Shown here in pieces: positions 20,275-27,865 of a DNA stretch of 64,000 nt; positions within the stretch are counted from its first letter, which is position 1; every line of letters starts with the position of its first letter. A model generated the notes under the pieces. The model was not told the origin of the DNA. It was given only the letters and a program-made list of their open reading frames with translations, and did no database searches. The DNA comes from Candidatus Bathyarchaeia archaeon. Its GTDB lineage: Archaea; Thermoproteota; Bathyarchaeia; 40CM-2-53-6. The DNA lies in assembly GCA_050013255.1 (NCBI GenBank), contig JBEKFP010000001.1, positions 160,001-224,000 on the forward strand, in the 5' to 3' direction. The position numbers were made by a program, and so were the translations under genes.

Positions 20275-21045
20275 TTGAGCTACGCAGACGCCCACCTACA
20301 TTTGGCGGACCCTGGCTTTGCCGGCCGCACAGAACAGGCCATTGATGATGCGACCAAGAACAAGGTGATGCGCCTTCTCTCAAACTCGGTGGATTATGAG
20401 ACGTCAACCCAAACCATAGCCTTAGCGAAACGATACTCCCCGAGGGTTCTCGCGGCCATAGGAGTTCACCCTTCGACGGTCATGAACACAAAAGACCAAC
20501 GTCTGGACGAGTTTCAGAAGCTAGTTGAGGAAAATGCAGGGTACGTTGCCGCAATCGGAGAGGTAGGTCTTGACGGAAAGTATACGCAAGACGAGCAGGT
20601 TAGAAAACGCCAGTTGGAAGTTTTCAGGTTCTTCCTTGGCCTGGCCGAGCGTAGAGGGCTACCAGTCGTAGTCCACTCGAGGATGGCAGTTGATGAAGTG
20701 CTACGAACCTTGCAAGACTTCCGTCTCCCCAAAGTCTTGTTACATTGGTATGATGGGCCGTTAGACAAACTTGAGGTGATTAGAGATAGAGGTTACCTGA
20801 TCTCGATCGGGCCAGCAGTATTCTACTCTCGGGCAATAAGCCAAGTTGCAGCTAACGTAGCATTGGACATGATATCGAGCGAAACCGATGGCCCCGTAAA
20901 ATACCACGGACCTTTCGAAGGCCGGCTCACGCAACCTTCTTTCGTAATAGAAGTGGTACAGAAATTAGCTGAGATTAAGGGCCTCCACATTGACGCAGTG
21001 CGAGAAGCGGTCTGGAGCAATTTCCAAAAACTCATTCCGCAATAG
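20275..21045 (+). CDS. tatD: TatD-family DNase
   Basis: DAHLH, GVHP, IGEVGLD, VHSR, HWY, ETDGP; TTG start at 20275. Confidence 0.9.
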   Translation: MSYADAHLHLADPGFAGRTEQAIDDATKNKVMRLLSNSVDYETSTQTIALAKRYSPRVLAAIGVHPSTVMNTKDQRLDEFQKLVEENAGYVAAIGEVGLDGKYTQDEQVRKRQLEVFRFFLGLAERRGLPVVVHSRMAVDEVLRTLQDFRLPKVLLHWYDGPLDKLEVIRDRGYLISIGPAVFYSRAISQVAANVALDMISSETDGPVKYHGPFEGRLTQPSFVIEVVQKLAEIKGLHIDAVREAVWSNFQKLIPQ

Positions 21046-21067
21046 GACTGTACAGTTCCCGCATTAG

Positions 21068-21105
21068 GGATCTGCCAAACTATCTCTCGTATTCTTGGCA
21101 GAATC
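21068..21105. mobile_element. 38-bp mini-element (ends only)
   Basis: GGATCTGCCAA...TTGGCAGAATC inverted ends between identical CGCATTAG copies. Confidence 0.7.
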
Positions 21106-21151
21106 CGCATTAGGGCTCTGTAAAGTCTGCATCGGTTATTGCACTTTGAAT

Positions 21152-21292
21152 ATGGCTATGAAGAAAATGATGATATCCGTATCCGACGACATGCTCAAAG
21201 CACTAGAAGCAGAACGCAAGGCACGAAAGTTAGAGACAGTACCAGAAGCCGTAAGAGCCGTGCTTGGAGAATACTTCAAGACGAAGCAATAA
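21152..21292 (+). CDS. Ribbon-helix-helix (CopG-like) protein, 46 aa
   Basis: MKKMMISVSDDMLKALE...VPEAVRAVL. Confidence 0.75.
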   Translation: MAMKKMMISVSDDMLKALEAERKARKLETVPEAVRAVLGEYFKTKQ

Positions 21293-21298
21293 GAGGGG

Positions 21299-22090
21299 TT
21301 AAGGACGGTCAGAAGAAGCCGATTCTTAGCACTTGCCATTATCTTTTGGCTAGCGTCAATAGGCTCCTTAGTAGTGGGAGCAGGGACGAACCCTGACCTC
21401 ATCTCTGGAGTCTCTTCGTTCTTGGTACGTGTGGGTTGGAGCAAACCTCCACTCATACCACTTGTTGAGTACTCTTCATCGATACAATTCACGCTTCCTC
21501 CATCGGTTCCCACTACTCCCATAGAGCCAGTAACCATGAAAGTTACACTGAGAGGAGAGGCTATTGTGGACAACGCGCCATTGACGATGATTGTAGACGC
21601 TCCAATCTCGGTCTTTGCAAAAGGAAATTGGACAATTGGCCCGACGATGGTAACTCCTGATAATGCACGCCCAGTTTCGTCTGGTATGCCTTCAACGCAA
21701 TTGAACTTGCGCTGGTGGACCACTGATGAATATGGTACCGAAATGTGGAATGGAACTGAGACATTCGAACTCACAACCTTTGGGGTCTTTGGTGTCACTA
21801 TTGGGATGTACATTGACCCTAGTCCACCAATGCGAGACTTTGAGAGTAGGACGGGTAAGTATGTAGGGTATGGTGGATACCTAACCATACACAACTCAAC
21901 AAAAATTATCGTTAATTCATCGGAAGTTAATGCCGCCGAACTAAGTGCGGAAAGAGCGATAGCGACAGGAAATAGTTTAGCATGGTTCATCATTTTCTTT
22001 GCCTCGCTTGATATTGGGTTTAGATTTTACGATTACAGTTCTGATGAAAAGGAGAATCATAGATGCGAACGCGAACCCGAAGAACCCTAA
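21299..22090 (+). CDS. Secreted/membrane-anchored hypothetical protein, start codon apparently lost
   Basis: Signal-peptide-like LRTVRRSRFLALAIIFWLASIGSLVVG lies in frame upstream of the called GTG (21374) but begins with TTA; C-terminal TM. Confidence 0.55.
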   Translation, partial: LRTVRRSRFLALAIIFWLASIGSLVVGAGTNPDLISGVSSFLVRVGWSKPPLIPLVEYSSSIQFTLPPSVPTTPIEPVTMKVTLRGEAIVDNAPLTMIVDAPISVFAKGNWTIGPTMVTPDNARPVSSGMPSTQLNLRWWTTDEYGTEMWNGTETFELTTFGVFGVTIGMYIDPSPPMRDFESRTGKYVGYGGYLTIHNSTKIIVNSSEVNAAELSAERAIATGNSLAWFIIFFASLDIGFRFYDYSSDEKENHRCEREPEEP

Positions 22091-22276
22091 GAATAAGCCA
22101 CCGCATGCCAGTTCGAGCCAAACATGAGACTGAAGGAATTCCTCGTTCATACTAAGGAATCCCATTATGATAAGAGTCCAGATAATACCGCTTAAGGGCA
22201 CGAAAAACCCGAATATCACCCAGTCTTCGTCACTTATGCTCACTATACGCGCCCTGATTTGAGAGAGGCGAACCAT
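21977..22276 (-). CDS. Small membrane hypothetical protein
   Basis: Two hydrophobic segments; overlaps the 3' end of the opposite ORF. Confidence 0.45.
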   Translation of the reverse strand: MVRLSQIRARIVSISDEDWVIFGFFVPLSGIIWTLIIMGFLSMNEEFLQSHVWLELACGGLFLGFFGFAFASMILLFIRTVIVKSKPNIKRGKENDEPC

Positions 22277-22423
22277 CTCTCAGTTCGCCACGTAACCGAC
22301 GGTTCTTGACAACGGTAAAAATTGGAAGCGTCGGAACCAACCGCCGCCAACTTGACAGCGTCCGCATCAGGGTTCTGTCAAAAGTACGGGAGATAAATTC
22401 GCCTGTAAAGTCGCGGGAGATGC

Positions 22424-22744
22424 CTAACTTGATTTCCGCAATTTTTCAGTGATTATTCTAACGATTTCTCCCTTATCGAGTTGAACTTCCGTTCTTTCCA
22501 CGGTGATTTTAGCTCGATTATCTGTTTTCAATTTGTCGTACAACCAATTGGTGAATAGACCAATCGCCACTTGGCTGGATATAGTCAAGATGACTTGCGT
22601 TATCAGTAGTGCTTCTTCACTGTCCGCCCCTGAACTTAGCCCAAATCGGGCACTAACTGTTCCGCTAAAGATTTTCTTGTCATTAATTTCGCTGTAGATT
22701 TCTGAGGCTAATTTGAAGTCATGCGTTACCAAAACGATTTCCAT
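22424..22744 (-). CDS. Cargo hypothetical protein (resembles effector-associated EACC1-like small domain)
   Basis: 106 aa with hydrophobic helix VAIGLFTNWLYDKLK then KITV; family resemblance is from memory only. Confidence 0.6.
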   Translation of the reverse strand: MEIVLVTHDFKLASEIYSEINDKKIFSGTVSARFGLSSGADSEEALLITQVILTISSQVAIGLFTNWLYDKLKTDNRAKITVERTEVQLDKGEIVRIITEKLRKSS

Positions 22745-22850
22745 AAAAGGAGAACTCTAACCTATCCTCTTATGACTTGCGTTCTGGGGTAACGCGTCGT
22801 TGTTGTTTGGTATGGGAAGGCGCGGCAAAGCGTTTGGTGGGGTTTTGAGG

Positions 22851-23297
22851 CTACTTTTCGAGAGTTGGTTTGTATCCCAGAATGTCAGGTTTGAACAAGC
22901 CTGATAGAAGGTTCCAGAAGGATAGGTATTGATGGCGAATCTTGTCATAGTCAGCTCTTATGATTCTTACGAAGTCATCCTGCCGATTTCCCACGAAGGC
23001 ATCCTCTGATGGTTTGGTCGCCAAAATATATCCGACATAGAAGTGGTGAAGGTTACGACTCATGAGATAATTCTTCTGATGAAGTAATTCGAGTAAGTCA
23101 TGATAATCCTGTTCCCCATGTTTCGGAAAGTGCTCTCTATCACTAAACCACGCATAGCGAAGAAGCGGAGAATACAGGCCGTCTAGCCGTTTCTCAATCG
23201 TCCTATGTCTTTGATTTAACGCTCCGACAAGGAGCGCGAACACGGCCACTATTAGAGCGGTAAGAATAGGGATTACTGTGCTAACGTTTTGGTCCAT
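22851..23297 (-). CDS. Cargo protein with N-terminal TM helix
   Basis: VIPILTALIVAVFALLVGAL followed by a soluble domain. Confidence 0.65.
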   Translation of the reverse strand: MDQNVSTVIPILTALIVAVFALLVGALNQRHRTIEKRLDGLYSPLLRYAWFSDREHFPKHGEQDYHDLLELLHQKNYLMSRNLHHFYVGYILATKPSEDAFVGNRQDDFVRIIRADYDKIRHQYLSFWNLLSGLFKPDILGYKPTLEK

Positions 23298-24429
23298 TTT
23301 GCTTCGAGGCATTCTGTATGATGGTCAGCCATTTGTCTTGCCCTTTGACCTCGATTCCCGCAACTTCTGAGGGTGTTTTCCCGTCTAGGGCTTCGTGTGG
23401 ACGAATGTAGTTATGGTAGATTTGTAGCCCTGTTAGGATTGGGCCGTCTGGTTTCTTGAGGTTTCTAGTTACTCTCTCGCGGTCGCGGATTTCTCCGTTC
23501 ATGCGTTCCATCTTGTTATTGTTGTGCTGTCCTGCCAAAGTGATTTGTCGAATGTGTACGGTGCTGTCGGATAGCTTGTTGGTTCGGAACTCTTTGAGCC
23601 ATGCATCGTGGTAAGAGCGTAGTCCGTCTGTGATTAGGATTTGCGGTTTCTTTCCTGCTCTATCCTTTGCCATTTGGAACAAGTGCCGTGCGTCATGTGT
23701 ATCTTTCGTGTCTGCTACTTCTTGTGCTATCCAGAATCTTGTCTCGTCGTCCATCATAGCGAAAACGTACTTCATGTTCCCGTGAAACTTCATGTAGAGC
23801 TCATCAGCCCGCCAAGTATCCGAAACTTGTGGCGTTATCTTGTCTAGGTACTTCTCCATCAGAGCCGTGTATCGCTTAATCCAGTTGTAGATTGTCTGGT
23901 GAGATACTTCCACGCCTTGAAGTCGCAAGAACTTCTTCGTGTTCCGTAGGCTCTCACCTGTGAAGTAGAGTTGAAGTGCGCTTGTCACGATTTGTGGTGT
24001 GGCTTTCAATCGCTCGAAACCTAGGTTCCTCACGAAGCGTTTTCCACAATTTTTGCATGTGAAGCGTTGAATGTCTCCGTTCTTGTTGTGTCGTAACCCA
24101 TCTCGAACTAATGTTTGCGAATCGCAGTAGAGGCATTTTGTTATGTCGAGAGGTCTGATTACTACTTGGTTGCTGACTTCGGCTCGTAATGCTTGCGAGA
24201 ATTCGACAGCCCAAATATGCTTACACTTAACCTCACGATAGATATGGTCGGGGCAACTGCAACGCCAAGCACGAAGATGATTATCCTTAACGACGGTGTA
24301 GAGGCCGTGTCCCGCTTGAGATTTGACCTGATAGGTTCCGTCGTCTAGCCGTGCGATTTGGCCTTCTAGCTTACAAATTTGTTGACCTCGCATTACTCGG
24401 CCTTCATCTATTTCACGTCTGAACGGCAT
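23281..24429 (-). CDS. IS6/IS240-type DDE transposase with N-terminal SWIM Zn finger and IS1-like Zn ribbon
   Basis: SWIM CSCPD..CKH; CLYC..CKNC; HTH VSHQTIYNW; WRADE, ITDG, NNKMERMN; likely start ATG 24429. Confidence 0.92.
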   Translation of the reverse strand: MPFRREIDEGRVMRGQQICKLEGQIARLDDGTYQVKSQAGHGLYTVVKDNHLRAWRCSCPDHIYREVKCKHIWAVEFSQALRAEVSNQVVIRPLDITKCLYCDSQTLVRDGLRHNKNGDIQRFTCKNCGKRFVRNLGFERLKATPQIVTSALQLYFTGESLRNTKKFLRLQGVEVSHQTIYNWIKRYTALMEKYLDKITPQVSDTWRADELYMKFHGNMKYVFAMMDDETRFWIAQEVADTKDTHDARHLFQMAKDRAGKKPQILITDGLRSYHDAWLKEFRTNKLSDSTVHIRQITLAGQHNNNKMERMNGEIRDRERVTRNLKKPDGPILTGLQIYHNYIRPHEALDGKTPSEVAGIEVKGQDKWLTIIQNASKQNGPKR

Positions 24430-24439
24430 CTCAATCCCT

Positions 24440-24493
24440 GCCACAATATTGTGGCGTAACCCAAATATAAGCCTTGCCACTATATTGTGGCAA
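24440..24493. promoter_or_regulatory. Twin palindromic operators flanking a TATA-like element
   Basis: GCCACAATATTGTGGC (24440-55, perfect) and TTGCCACTATATTGTGGCAA (24474-93) around AAATATAA. Confidence 0.75.
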
Positions 24494-24690
24494 TGGTGAT
24501 AAGAACGGTAAGAAAAGAAATTCTCGGTCAATCCGAACGTAGGATACTCGAAGCTTACCTGAAAGGCGAACGACTCAAAGGGTACAATACACTTCTATGG
24601 CGAATCCGTACTATCGGTCTTAGAGCAATCATAGAAGGTTGTGAGAAAGACATAGCACTGCTAAGGAAACTCGCACAAAAACTATCCTAA
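24493..24690 (+). CDS. Small basic protein divergent from the transposase (candidate regulator)
   Basis: 65 aa, helical and basic; start overlaps the second operator. Confidence 0.65.
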   Translation: MVIRTVRKEILGQSERRILEAYLKGERLKGYNTLLWRIRTIGLRAIIEGCEKDIALLRKLAQKLS

Positions 24691-24960
24691 ATGCAAAACG
24701 ACGACTAAGATTAGTAACCCCAAGTAAAGCAAGGGAAGGATAAGCAAAACCGCTACAAGTGCTACCTGCTTCCAACTCTCTCCTTCCCCTAGAATGAACC
24801 ACGCACCAGCAATAAATGGGGGGATTGTCAGAACAACAAGAATTGTCTCTTCTACAGACAATCGAAAGAACCCTACGTCGAAGGTGAAGAACCAGAACAG
24901 GTATGCATAGAGAGCGAGCAACACCATTACTGGTATAGATTGAAGTACGCCTTTGGCCAC
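24682..24960 (-). CDS. Cargo 3-TM membrane protein
   Basis: Highly hydrophobic 92 aa. Confidence 0.6.
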   Translation of the reverse strand: MAKGVLQSIPVMVLLALYAYLFWFFTFDVGFFRLSVEETILVVLTIPPFIAGAWFILGEGESWKQVALVAVLLILPLLYLGLLILVVVLHLG

Positions 24961-25446
24961 CTAGTTCCCCTCACGGTCAACTAATAGAATTAGCTGGGCA
25001 TTGTAGCCTACTGCAATCAGAAAACCGAACAATGCCACGGCGAATAATATCCCTTCCCAACCCGAAGTATTTTGCGGAGATATGATGCCGTTGTCTATGC
25101 TTAGTCTAATGAGGATGGAACCTAGAAAGACCAAGCCTGCGAAGAGGTAGAATTGAAATGCTAAATCTAGCCGTTTGGCGGGTTCTAAAGCGGTTACGCG
25201 ATAGTCGGACATGCTGAAGATTTGGTTCTCTATTGTACGAATTTGTCTTGAACTGGCTCGTTTTAGCAGTTTTCTAACTTTCGCTCTACCTGTTCTGATT
25301 CGTTTTTCCTTAATCTTCCTAAGATTTGCTGAATACCTATGATGGACATCAAAACCGAGTCCCAAACTTAATGCCATCAGTGTAAGCGATACCCACCATA
25401 GCTCAGCGGCCATCGAGAAATCAGGAAAAGGAATCATCGATTGCAT
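24961..25446 (-). CDS. Cargo 3-TM membrane protein with basic loop
   Basis: 161 aa; abuts the downstream ORF. Confidence 0.65.
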   Translation of the reverse strand: MQSMIPFPDFSMAAELWWVSLTLMALSLGLGFDVHHRYSANLRKIKEKRIRTGRAKVRKLLKRASSRQIRTIENQIFSMSDYRVTALEPAKRLDLAFQFYLFAGLVFLGSILIRLSIDNGIISPQNTSGWEGILFAVALFGFLIAVGYNAQLILLVDREGN

Positions 25447-25570
25447 ATTTGTTGTTTGCTATCTCCCGAACTTGACACAAGAAAAATCTCCCGCTCGTTT
25501 GACAGAACCCGCATCAGCAAAGTTTATGTTGAGTGCGCTTTGCTCTTGGTTCGATTCAGAGCTGTTAGGT

Positions 25571-25822
25571 TTGGGGAAAGTTCGCACTGATACAGTGAAG
25601 CGAGTTTCTAGGGAGGTACTTAGAAGATTCCCCGAACGTTTCGCTGGAGACTGGGAATCCGACAAGCAGGCCGTTAGTGACTTGGTGTCTACGCAGTCTA
25701 AACGCTTGCGTAACAGGATAGCAGGGTACGTGACAAGGCTGAAGGTTGTCGAAGCGGAACGCGCGGCCGCCACTGAGGTTGCCGCTGAGGCTCCCGAAGC
25801 AACGGAACCAGACGAAGAATGA
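25571..25822 (+). CDS. rps17e: 30S ribosomal protein S17e
   Basis: MGKVRT..VKR, SKRLRNRIAGYVTR; TTG start. Confidence 0.95.
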   Translation: MGKVRTDTVKRVSREVLRRFPERFAGDWESDKQAVSDLVSTQSKRLRNRIAGYVTRLKVVEAERAAATEVAAEAPEATEPDEE

Positions 25823-25957
25823 GGCAATAGCCTCATCCCCAATTCTATTTCCTTGCGGGAAACACTAAAAGGGCAGTCTATGCTCTCCCGAACGAAAATT
25901 CGAATTACCCCGCAATGGGCGCAGGAAACAAATTCCGCTGGATAAGGTTGAGACGTA

Positions 25958-27865
25958 TTGCACATCGTTGTCTGTGTTAAGCATGTTCCCGATGCCACGG
26001 ACATTCGTTTTGACCCAATTACGCTCAATCTGATCCGTGAAGGCGTCCCCTCGATAGTCAACCCCTTCTGCCTCAACGCCCTCGAAGAAGCGATTCGGCT
26101 GAAGGAGAAGTTTAGCGGCAAAATCACTGCGGTAGCAATGGGTCCGCTGCAAGCTCAGGAGGGCTTGCGAGAAGCCCTCGCCATGGGCGCCGATCGGGCG
26201 GTGATGGTCTCGGATCGGGAAATGGCGGGAGCAGATACCCTAGCGACGTCCTACACGCTTTGGAGGAGTATTGCAACGATAGCGCAGGCCGACCCGTTTG
26301 ACCTGATCCTAACTGGAAAGGTTGCAATCGATGGTGAAACAGGCCAAGTTCCACCCGGCCTCGCTGTGAGATTTAGCATTCCCATCATTTCGAACGTCAC
26401 GAAGATAGAGGAAGTCGACCTGAAATCACGAACCATAGTAGCAAAGCATAGGTTCGACGATGGCATTGAGATGGTCAAGGCGAGCCTCCCAGCTGTTCTG
26501 ACTATTACTGAAGAAGCAAACAAGCCGAGAAAATTCACGGTCGAAGGCATGCTAAACGCAAAGAGAACAAACATCGAAGTCTGGGACAAGAAAGCGATAA
26601 ACGCCGACTCAAATCTTCTAGGCCTCAAGGGTTCCCCGACAATCGTCAAGAAAGTATTTCCTCCCCCCGGAAGGAAACAGGGGGAAGTATTCGACGGGAA
26701 CACGGACCCGAAAGCCGCCGCAAAATGGCTGGTCCAAAACTTCATCCGAGTTCACGCACTCGGACCCCCACCACCAAAACCCGCCGAAACCGTGCCCGAG
26801 CTTCCAAAAGAGAGGGGAAAGGTTGAGAATTCCGGGAAGTACGGCGAGGTTTGGGTCTACGTTGAACACCTTCATGGAAAACCCTCCCAAGTTTCATGGG
26901 AACTTCTAGGCGAAGGAAAACGGCTCGCAGAGATCTACGGAACCAAACTCGGGGCAATAATCATCGGCCACAATGTTGGACACCTTGCGAAGGAGTCGTT
27001 TGTTCACGGCGCGGACAAGGCATATTTGGTCGAGGATGAGCGCCTCGAGAATTACCGGACGCAGCCTTACGCCGTTGCCATGGAGGAGGCCGTTAGGAAA
27101 TTCAAACCCGAAGCTCTCTTGGTCGGTGGAACGATTAGGGGCCGGGACCTAGCGGGCTCAGCAGCCACCTTCTTGGAGACCGGGCTTATTGCGGATTGCA
27201 CTGGGTTGGATGTGGATATGGAGACTGGCACTTTCATGGGCACGAGGCCCGATTACGGCGGCAACCTCATGTCCACTATAATCTGCCCCAAGGACAGGCC
27301 GACTATGGCCAGCGTCCGCCCCCGCGTTATGAAGAGCCTGCCCCCAGAGGAGGGAAGAGACGGGGAGATAATCAACGTGGACTTCTCGCTCAAACCTACC
27401 GACCTAAACACTGAATTGGTGGATTTCGTCCCGATCGAGAAGGTAGACGTTCGCCTGGAAGATGCTCAGGTTATCGTTTCCGGAGGAAGAGGGCTAGGAG
27501 TAGCCAAGAACTTCCAACTAATCGAGGAACTCGCGAAAACTCTCCAAGCACAAGTAGGTGCTTCTAGGGCGGCAGTGCGAGCCGGATGGATAAGCCCCGA
27601 ACACCAAGTTGGCCAAACAGGGTTTACGGTCAGGCCGCGCCTCTACGTCGCCGTTGGCATTTCCGGAGCGATTCAACACATTGTCGGTATCATGAACGTT
27701 GACTATATTGTTGCGATAAACCGAGATCCCGAGGCGCCCATCTTCAAGATGGCCGACTTCGGCATCGTTGGCGACCTCTTCAAAGTCGTCCCAGCCCTAA
27801 TTGATGAGCTCAAGAATGTTCACACAGCTGAGTTGGCGTCATGGCAGAGAAGTTCGACTCAGTAG
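25958..27865 (+). CDS. fixAB: Fused electron transfer flavoprotein beta-alpha (FixA-FixB)
   Basis: VCVKHVPD, GADTLATS, AIDGETGQV; Pro linker; RPDYGGN, SGGRG, QVGQTG, GISGAIQH. Confidence 0.93.
   Translation: MHIVVCVKHVPDATDIRFDPITLNLIREGVPSIVNPFCLNALEEAIRLKEKFSGKITAVAMGPLQAQEGLREALAMGADRAVMVSDREMAGADTLATSYTLWRSIATIAQADPFDLILTGKVAIDGETGQVPPGLAVRFSIPIISNVTKIEEVDLKSRTIVAKHRFDDGIEMVKASLPAVLTITEEANKPRKFTVEGMLNAKRTNIEVWDKKAINADSNLLGLKGSPTIVKKVFPPPGRKQGEVFDGNTDPKAAAKWLVQNFIRVHALGPPPPKPAETVPELPKERGKVENSGKYGEVWVYVEHLHGKPSQVSWELLGEGKRLAEIYGTKLGAIIIGHNVGHLAKESFVHGADKAYLVEDERLENYRTQPYAVAMEEAVRKFKPEALLVGGTIRGRDLAGSAATFLETGLIADCTGLDVDMETGTFMGTRPDYGGNLMSTIICPKDRPTMASVRPRVMKSLPPEEGRDGEIINVDFSLKPTDLNTELVDFVPIEKVDVRLEDAQVIVSGGRGLGVAKNFQLIEELAKTLQAQVGASRAAVRAGWISPEHQVGQTGFTVRPRLYVAVGISGAIQHIVGIMNVDYIVAINRDPEAPIFKMADFGIVGDLFKVVPALIDELKNVHTAELASWQRSSTQ

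Follow-up and report, generated by a model that had tools for sequence, protein, structure and literature searches.

Why should four related transposons, or what remains of them, stand in a row in front of a ribosomal protein gene, separated by near-identical copies of one 8-bp sequence? This question is raised by the site between tatD and rps17e in a Bathyarchaeia genome of 2.46 Mb (G000), from which we analysed a stretch of 64,000 nucleotides (G000:C1:160001-224000, hereafter the window, to which positions given without a contig refer). At this site five copies of a target-site duplication (TSD) split four units of 14, 38, 1249 and 3139 bp that resemble insertion sequences (IS) of the IS6 family. 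Our results indicate that the polarised array is very probably the product of promoter-anchored targeting by archaeal IS6-like cargo transposons.

Four units and five duplications precede rps17e

From tatD towards rps17e the array is arranged as follows (TIR, terminal inverted repeat; BRE, B recognition element).

21038..21045, plus strand: TSD copy 1 (CGCAATAG), the most distal, which includes the tatD stop codon TAG (21043-21045)
21046..21059, unstranded: unit 1, a 14-bp relic of fused TIR tips, with a right end that fits the TIR matrix and a left end that does so only given a 1-nt loss
21060..21067, plus strand: TSD copy 2 (CGCATTAG)
21068..21105, unstranded: unit 2, a 38-bp deletion relic in which about 12 nt of one tip are fused to about 25 nt of a unit-4-type end
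21106..21113, plus strand: TSD copy 3 (CGCATTAG)
21114..22362, unstranded: unit 3, a 1249-bp transposase-less deletion derivative with a ribbon-helix-helix (RHH) regulator and cargo
22363..22370, plus strand: TSD copy 4 (CGCATCAG), with a derived T>C change common to copy 5
22371..25509, unstranded: unit 4, an intact 3139-bp cargo transposon with a TIR match of 13/14 and bipartite ends
25510..25517, plus strand: TSD copy 5 (CGCATCAG), promoter-proximal, its last base being the purine at -6 relative to the TATA box
25518..25530, plus strand: putative rps17e promoter core, judged from position and consensus, with a BRE-like CAAAG and then a TATA-like TTTATGTT
25571..25822, plus strand: rps17e, host gene (Pfam Ribosomal_S17e), transcribed away from the array

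An earlier interpretation of this DNA, the sequence-only reading, had described the same five 8-mers and four units, and its coordinates and sizes proved exact. The pattern CGCAWYAG occurs five times in the 4.5-kb stretch against 0.32 expected, always on one strand and each time at a unit border, with none elsewhere in the stretch; the count across G000 is 324. When the whole genome was scanned, with mismatches, for a right end followed by 8 bp and a left end, only three junctions were recovered, all of them internal to the array. The unit ends were scored on a TIR matrix trained on other genomes only, and seven of the eight clearly exceeded background, with genome fractions between 2e-6 and 1e-3: 2e-6 to 7e-5 for units 3 and 4, 3e-4 and 1e-3 for the 38-bp unit, and 3e-5 for the right end of the 14-bp stub (score 11.6). 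The left end of the stub, GACTGT, fits the TIR only if one G was lost. With this qualification, the small units are real TIR remnants, as the sequence-only reading had supposed.

DNA identical to the window is present in peat and wetland metagenomes. The array junctions are no assembly artefact, because independent contigs from two peat or wetland runs not flagged as the source bridge them without differences (20805-23517 and 23832/24201-25765). The contigs of four runs contained neither a joint from which exactly one unit had been excised nor an end-to-end junction of a circle; contigs lose rare variants, so this is not evidence of absence. Insertion leaves tatD intact, since TSD copy 1 carries its stop codon, and the tatD gene of a relative (G014) ends with an identical 8-mer, CGCATTAG.

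The promoter motif at rps17e is constant and the 8-mer is not

We compared the rps17e locus in 18 congeneric genomes. The motif CAAAGTTTATGT is found at the rps17e promoter in all of them, and in 14 a TIR terminates exactly 8 nt before it, with 11 distinct 8-mers. The filled sites hold full elements, fragments, RHH-led units or a single end, and G018, G021 and G016 have multi-unit stacks of their own. In G010 the site is cleanly empty, tatD lying directly against the promoter without a TIR; other DNA without a TIR is present in G005 and G022, and G020 has only a doubtful relic. Both an empty site and different cargo at filled sites had been expected in relatives by the sequence-only reading. 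It had also taken the 8-mer for the target, and this did not survive: TSDs show no relation from one locus to the next and differ even among rps17e sites, where three relatives (G014, G018, G021) have CGCATTAG next to the promoter, whereas the BRE/TATA position is fixed. The constant feature at rps17e is the downstream promoter motif, not the 8-mer.

Insertions lie at a fixed distance from the TATA box

Elements were delimited around full-length transposase homologues by TIR and perfect 8-bp TSD only, with no promoter criterion; the outer ends of arrays were reached by walking, and orthologous sites were collapsed by flank identity. We found that a TATA-like hexamer starts 5 nt beyond the TSD at 21 of 36 independent sites and at none of them at offset 4 or 6, against a background of 0.013 per offset (nominal p 7e-31); a stricter TATA pattern was present at offset 5 in 14 of the 36. 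In a held-out metagenome set the pre-set pattern was found at offset 5 in 11 of 33 new sites (p 1e-14), and a matrix trained on the first set gave its top score at the exact offset in 12 of 26 held-out sites, compared with 1/43 by chance. TIR matches in G000 also peak at offset 5 (6 versus 1.6 and 7 versus 1.1).

The oriented flank consensus reads R/CAAWNTTTATA, the stroke marking the TSD border. Counted from the TATA box, a purine stands at -6 in 18 of 21 sites and an A at -3 in 15 of 21, as in the archaeal BRE. The remaining TSD positions are unconserved, and the TSDs of the 11 oriented held-out sites all differ. The 8-bp duplication thus placed spans -13 to -6 upstream of the TATA box. Element orientation is free (19 versus 12, plus 4 between divergent promoters). 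The target genes, which face away from the elements, include rps17e, rpl38e, rpl7ae, rps24e, a gene for a 60S acidic ribosomal protein, radA, sufB, sufS, hsp20, htpX and the thermosome gene, and at most sites an open frame starts 26-70 nt downstream.

The same offset pattern was seen in Nitrosopumilus, Nitrosotalea, Nitrosocosmicus and one metagenome-assembled genome (MAG) of Thermoplasmata. Other occupied promoters in G000 are those of hsp20 (C1:106344) and the thermosome (C2:559197); the hsp20 promoter has an element end at the same position in 11 of 11 congeneric genomes, and the htpX promoter, unoccupied in G000, is filled in the G021 orthologue. Solitary elements at offset 5 with no neighbour were found at seven loci (L079, L081, L084, L109, L128, L145 and L149). 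As a control we used a distant element of Methanolobus sp. WCC5, related at 27% over the zinc-ribbon/helix-turn-helix (HTH) region only. It is a 1310-bp IS below the NCBIfam cut-offs, with GGGGCTGTCAAAAA ends and 8-bp TSDs, and none of its six copies (L185-L190) lies at the offset, nor is there a peak.

Several further observations concern the insertion position. Where insertions lie between divergent promoters (L081, L143, L149/L153, L158), each flank of the TSD has a TATA-like motif at offset 5 or close to it. Insertions at thermosome promoters (L092, L095, L096, L323, G000:C2:559197) are often 2 nt nearer the TATA box, and at L096 two successive insertions 2 nt apart match alternative registers of a TATATA run. 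In a divergent subfamily (32-41% identity; L107:8114-12994, L108:7067-11669, L111, L113), two sites have the TATA motif about 15 nt away from the TSD, and two others are flanked by G-rich palindromes, CCCCC..GGGGG. G000 encodes two paralogues each of the TATA-binding protein (TBP) and transcription factor B (TFB) (C3:103254, C2:743985, C2:185389, C2:326217), which could underlie promoter-class preferences of element subclades.

The newest unit adjoins the promoter

TSD copies 4 and 5 have in common a derived T>C change that is absent from copies 1-3 and from the three relatives G014, G018 and G021, and therefore unit 4 was inserted last. The same polarity was found elsewhere. In 25 of 27 resolved arrays an intact unit with a perfect TSD adjoins the promoter; the two exceptions likewise have a full-length proximal unit. 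In multi-unit arrays the proximal unit had no TSD mismatches in 11 of 11 cases, and the most distal unit had 1-2 mismatches in 6 of 11. The proposal of the sequence-only reading that a DDE transposase had inserted repeatedly at one point, the newest unit next to rps17e, was supported, and the tandem arrays that it anticipated among homologues recur. Its further claim that unit size rises towards rps17e holds at this array and fails as a general rule, since at L062 in G021 a 1419-bp unit lies proximal to one of 4628 bp.

The element and its transposase

Within units 3 and 4 the following features were distinguished (ORF, open reading frame).

21152..21292, plus strand: 46-aa RHH gene in unit 3 (Pfam RHH_1, E=5.5e-4, slightly below cut-off)
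21374..22090, plus strand: 238-aa cargo ORF in unit 3 of no known family, with a weak relative (24%) in the G013 rps17e array
22424..22744, minus strand: 106-aa cargo ORF in unit 4, an orphan in the searched loci
22788..22840, plus strand: remnant of a GGTAACG-type end, from a second subfamily, within unit 4; a TATA-like hexamer lies at its offset 5
22851..23312, minus strand: 153-aa cargo ORF in unit 4 with an N-terminal hydrophobic segment, an orphan in the searched loci
23281..24429, minus strand: 382-aa transposase of unit 4, with SWIM, zinc ribbon, helical/HTH region and RNase-H DDE core
24437..24492, unstranded: two GCCAC-N-GTGGC palindromes between the transposase and the divergent small gene, probably operators
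24493..24690, plus strand: 65-aa conserved divergent gene of unit 4, a probable regulator, with 41 tblastn matches and no Pfam family
24682..25446, minus strand: two membrane-type cargo ORFs (92 and 161 aa) in unit 4, orphans in the searched loci

The transposase combines a SWIM zinc finger (ligands C57, C59, C69 and H71), an IS1-like zinc ribbon (C99, C102, C125 and C128) and a DDE core (D209, D268 and E308, the last two 40 residues apart), and all of these residues are invariant across 78 homologues. In the AlphaFold2 model (pLDDT 87.7) helices at 145-195 precede the DDE core, and a fold search with this model matched DDE transposases and integrases. The nearest named relatives come from Bathyarchaeia MAGs. 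PF13610 scored 60.1 bits against a cut-off of 27, indicating a DDE_Tnp_IS240-type core. The best-scoring NCBIfam family was IS6 (NF033587), below threshold at 115.1 bits against a cut-off of 125; the IS256 model reached 31 bits against 150, and the ISLre2 model gave no match at E<=0.01.

Family members are 2-7 kb long and carry cargo, and perfect 8-bp duplications were found at more than 100 element calls, 8 bp being the only length searched. The TIR consensus from 38 ends, GGTTCTGTTAAGT, has the terminal GG and the internal cTGTt and caaa motifs; a subclade with GGTAACG ends does not fit the IS6 TIR motif. The ends of unit 4 are bipartite, with a second GGGAGAT-type box about 28 nt inward of each. 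In a quick transposase tree the GGTAACG-end, offset-15 and control sets each grouped.

Twenty-seven of 46 matches to the RHH gene are divergent from a transposase, 79-128 bp from its start in autonomous relatives. Unit 3 is read as a deletion derivative because its RHH gene is the divergent partner of the transposase in those relatives. The 65-aa divergent gene was likewise found next to many homologous transposases. None of the cargo ORFs of the array matched a Pfam or NCBIfam family above cut-off, and some are hydrophobic. The hexamer beside the nested GGTAACG-type end in unit 4 faces the 106-aa cargo ORF, and like ends lie inside units of G018 and G021. Promoters of cargo genes may be targets too, which would shuffle cargo.

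How the promoter may be read

We propose that transposons of this family, with a SWIM, zinc-ribbon and DDE transposase, insert at a set distance from a BRE/TATA promoter. One TSD copy and the BRE/TATA stay with the promoter after insertion, so that the next element would again land 5 nt from the TATA box, and older units would be displaced, decaying by internal deletion to transposase-less units and TIR stubs. New units would come to lie between the promoter and older units because this one-sided landmark survives insertion, and the five 8-mers of the array would be near-identical because each insertion duplicates the preceding copy.

The cuts fall at -13/-14 and -5/-6 and abut the BRE, at which TFB binds. 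On balance we lean towards a transposase tethered to the promoter-bound TBP/TFB complex, possibly via the N-terminal SWIM domain. It is possible, if rather unlikely, that an accessory domain of the transposase instead recognises a CAA-N2-TTTATA-like sequence or its bendability with no host protein, and the array would then form alike. The flank consensus is specific, the two extra zinc modules could bind DNA, and our analysis itself demonstrates no protein contact, all of which suits such direct reading. A tether is favoured over it because the asymmetric motif lies beyond the TSD and shows the degeneracy of promoters, because strongly expressed housekeeping and heat-shock genes are preferred as targets, and because at two sites of the divergent subfamily the TATA motif lies about 10 nt further out, one helical turn more, as a tether on one helix face predicts. 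The SWIM domain is the obvious candidate for a targeting module, since classical IS6 enzymes are without it. Its fold search gave ZSWIM8 as best match (Z 6.5, rmsd 6.5 Å, 81 aligned) and Shu2 (Z 4.3), and indicated no TBP- or TFB-binding fold; there was no PDB sequence match, and the Atlas matches, below 0.9, are leads only. A complex prediction of the transposase with host TFB core and TBP (score 0.00, mark 0.32) was taken as evidence neither way. Bolder and more tentative is the idea that the SWIM-containing transposase docks directly on TBP-TFB, that strong housekeeping and heat-shock promoters are landing pads reused across the genus with an ordered record of cargo, and that at hsp20 a transposon end completes an upstream operator and has been co-opted into host regulation.

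Three other explanations were weighed. Insertion beside a resident TIR is known for IS911/IS30-type reactions and would let arrays grow wherever a first copy sits, giving head-to-tail junctions with a TSD-length spacer, as seen here; the solitary elements at offset 5 largely refute it, and array growth is one-sided, towards the promoter, so that as the sole explanation it is improbable, although it could still add to growth. If random insertions had been sifted by selection for those that spare promoters, the harmless position would be accounted for, BRE/TATA and here the tatD stop codon being kept. Any position further upstream would have been equally acceptable, however, whereas the data form a single-base peak (0, 21 and 0 at offsets 4, 5 and 6), identical phosphodiester bonds are used repeatedly and the Methanolobus control has no peak, which makes this account very improbable. 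Recognition of CGCATTAG itself as an 8-bp target would explain the near-identity of the five array copies, yet it is scarcely credible given the variety of TSDs at held-out sites and at rps17e, and given that end-to-end junctions of this type occur only at the array among all the CGCAWYAG copies in G000.

Promoter-anchored targeting has its own points against it. About 40-55% of sites have no motif at the exact offset, some being shifted by 2 nt and some having no TATA-like motif, and promoter targeting is a strong preference, not absolute. The sites come from related genomes, and the p-values are nominal despite the collapsing of orthologous sites. The TATA pattern was defined after the first set had been seen, hence the weight of the held-out test. 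Not all of the 27 arrays are independent, orthologous hsp20 and thermosome loci being among them, and three others, unresolved at the promoter end, were left out. Promoter function and transposition are both deduced from sequence.

Heat-shock promoters and the neighbourhood of rps17e

At the hsp20 promoters of the 11 congeneric genomes (L339-L349; G000:C1:106300-106360) the element end is of the GGTAACG type. The element-terminal CGTTACC and a conserved GTAA-C at the TSD end form a GTTAC-N5-GTAAC palindrome upstream of the TATA box that mirrors a downstream one, and the element end may supply half of a host operator. The downstream palindrome, (G)TTAC-N5-GTAA(C), comes after the TATA box at hsp20, thermosome and htpX genes (G000 C1:106304, C1:1104012-1104044, C1:1383130, C2:559156 and C3:26291; L083, L089, L092 and L101). 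It is a probable heat-shock operator of the genus and resembles the site CTAAC-N5-GTTAG that is bound by HSR1 of Archaeoglobus (PMC2396416).

Next to the array, across the 3' end of rps17e and the sequence downstream of it (25741-26200), a second allele or strain that differs at about 12 positions was present in four runs at similar depth. A single 635-aa ORF at 25958-27865, ahead of fixC/fixX-like genes, looks by eye like an EtfB-EtfA fusion.

Implications

If our interpretation is correct, an archaeal transposon family locates safe sites via a basal transcription signal, linking the targeting of bacterial TnGBS with that of eukaryotic Ty3, and the tethering question can be tested with purified archaeal TBP and TFB. 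It accounts for the way in which, in Bathyarchaeia and Nitrososphaerota, accessory genes pile up immediately upstream of core genes. Insertions would flag promoter positions at single-base resolution in uncultured archaea, stacks would date the acquisition of cargo in relative terms, and an integrase that spares promoters could be of use in archaeal genetics. To this the rps17e locus adds a genus-wide comparison of filled and empty sites, held-out replication, a control and direct evidence of arrival order.

Comparison with known systems

Promoter targeting and tandem stacks are already known in other systems; the archaeal case was not found in the literature. We found no paper on an archaeal TATA/TFB-targeted transposon in a search that reached few subscription papers, and a 2026 survey of archaeal IS contains no occurrence of promoter, TATA, target or SWIM. 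A term search of two IS6 reviews found neither strong promoter targeting nor tandem stacks (PMC6807381, PMC7986276).

Among the nearest known elements are those of IS6/IS26, especially the long members with zinc fingers (clades VII/VIII or h/i), and the tIS ISDsp3, with which the archaeal element has in common the TIR motif, the 8-bp TSD and the DDE_Tnp_IS240 core (PMC6807381, PMC7986276). The long members also have the N-terminal zinc ribbon of the array transposase. The archaeal element differs from IS6 in its SWIM domain, its 2-6 kb length with cargo on both sides, its divergent regulator and its bipartite ends, as well as in strong promoter targeting and tandem stacks. The IS6/IS26 family is defined by the TIR motif GG..cTGT..caa (PMC7986276); in the strict sense of Harmer and Hall it comprises IS of ~0.8-0.9 kb with a short transposase and no additional N-terminal domains, long and archaeal members being excluded (PMC6807381). 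We considered filing the element as an IS6/IS26 member on its IS6-like TIR, TSD and catalytic domain and rejected this, since it falls below the NCBIfam cut-off and, with a 382-aa SWIM and zinc-ribbon enzyme in elements of 2-7 kb, outside what the strict definition allows in size and domains. IS6/IS26 elements transpose by forming cointegrates, a targeted conservative route included. In the archaeal elements the TSDs match on the two sides, which agrees with simple insertion or with a cointegrate that was resolved, and a fresh TSD copy is present at every junction, in contrast to the conservative route.

TnGBS/ISLre2 transposons (p-MULT 3) and some ISKra4 insert 15-17 nt from the sigmaA -35 box and have an N-terminal signature associated with targeting, and a tether to the initiation complex has been proposed (PMC3942029). 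The archaeal family likewise has a DDE transposase that inserts at a fixed distance upstream of promoters. Theirs are bacterial sigmaA promoters, used by a Mutator-type transposase in mostly one orientation, whereas the archaeal family uses a BRE/TATA landmark, an IS6-like transposase and both orientations. The long helical insert that separates the second D from the E in Mutator-type p-MULT 3 enzymes is missing, D268 and E308 being 40 residues apart.

The sequence-only reading knew of no description of the architecture, but there is a published precedent: the ISAba32 subgroup of IS1202 forms tandem stacks separated by one direct repeat (DR) at XerCD (xrs/dif) sites, the proximal copy being inferred to have arrived last (bioRxiv 10.1101/2022.12.17.520857). 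It too inserts at a fixed distance by a host protein-binding site, stacks the same or different IS and has one member with a passenger gene. Its target is a recombination site, its DR is 5-6 bp, its orientation constant and its sites few per genome; the archaeal elements, in contrast, use promoters of many genes, and their stacks decay into cargo-bearing miniature inverted-repeat elements (MITEs) and stubs.

The likeness to integrons and CRISPR drawn by the sequence-only reading stands for the architecture, in that a polarised array is built in order of arrival and its newest unit lies at one end, and falls for membership. Each archaeal unit is or was an independent, ordinary transposon bounded by TIR and TSD, which rules membership out, and no shared promoter reads into the array, the adjacent one facing away from it. 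No tyrosine integrase, other separate integrase or Cas1 was found among the ORFs of the array and its neighbours, and there was no attC/attI and no shared recombination site.

Ty3 inserts near the start site of transcription, whereas the archaeal DNA transposon inserts upstream of the BRE. Ty3, Ty1 and Tf1 differ further in being long terminal repeat (LTR) retrotransposons with an integrase that acts at Pol III or Pol II genes. In these yeast elements integration is positioned by the transcription machinery at safe intergenic sites, Ty3 being directed by TFIIIB, and the tether of Ty3 is TBP together with a TFIIB-family factor (PMC5371812). A SWIM transposase docking on TBP-TFB, if true, would be the archaeal counterpart of Ty3 targeting.

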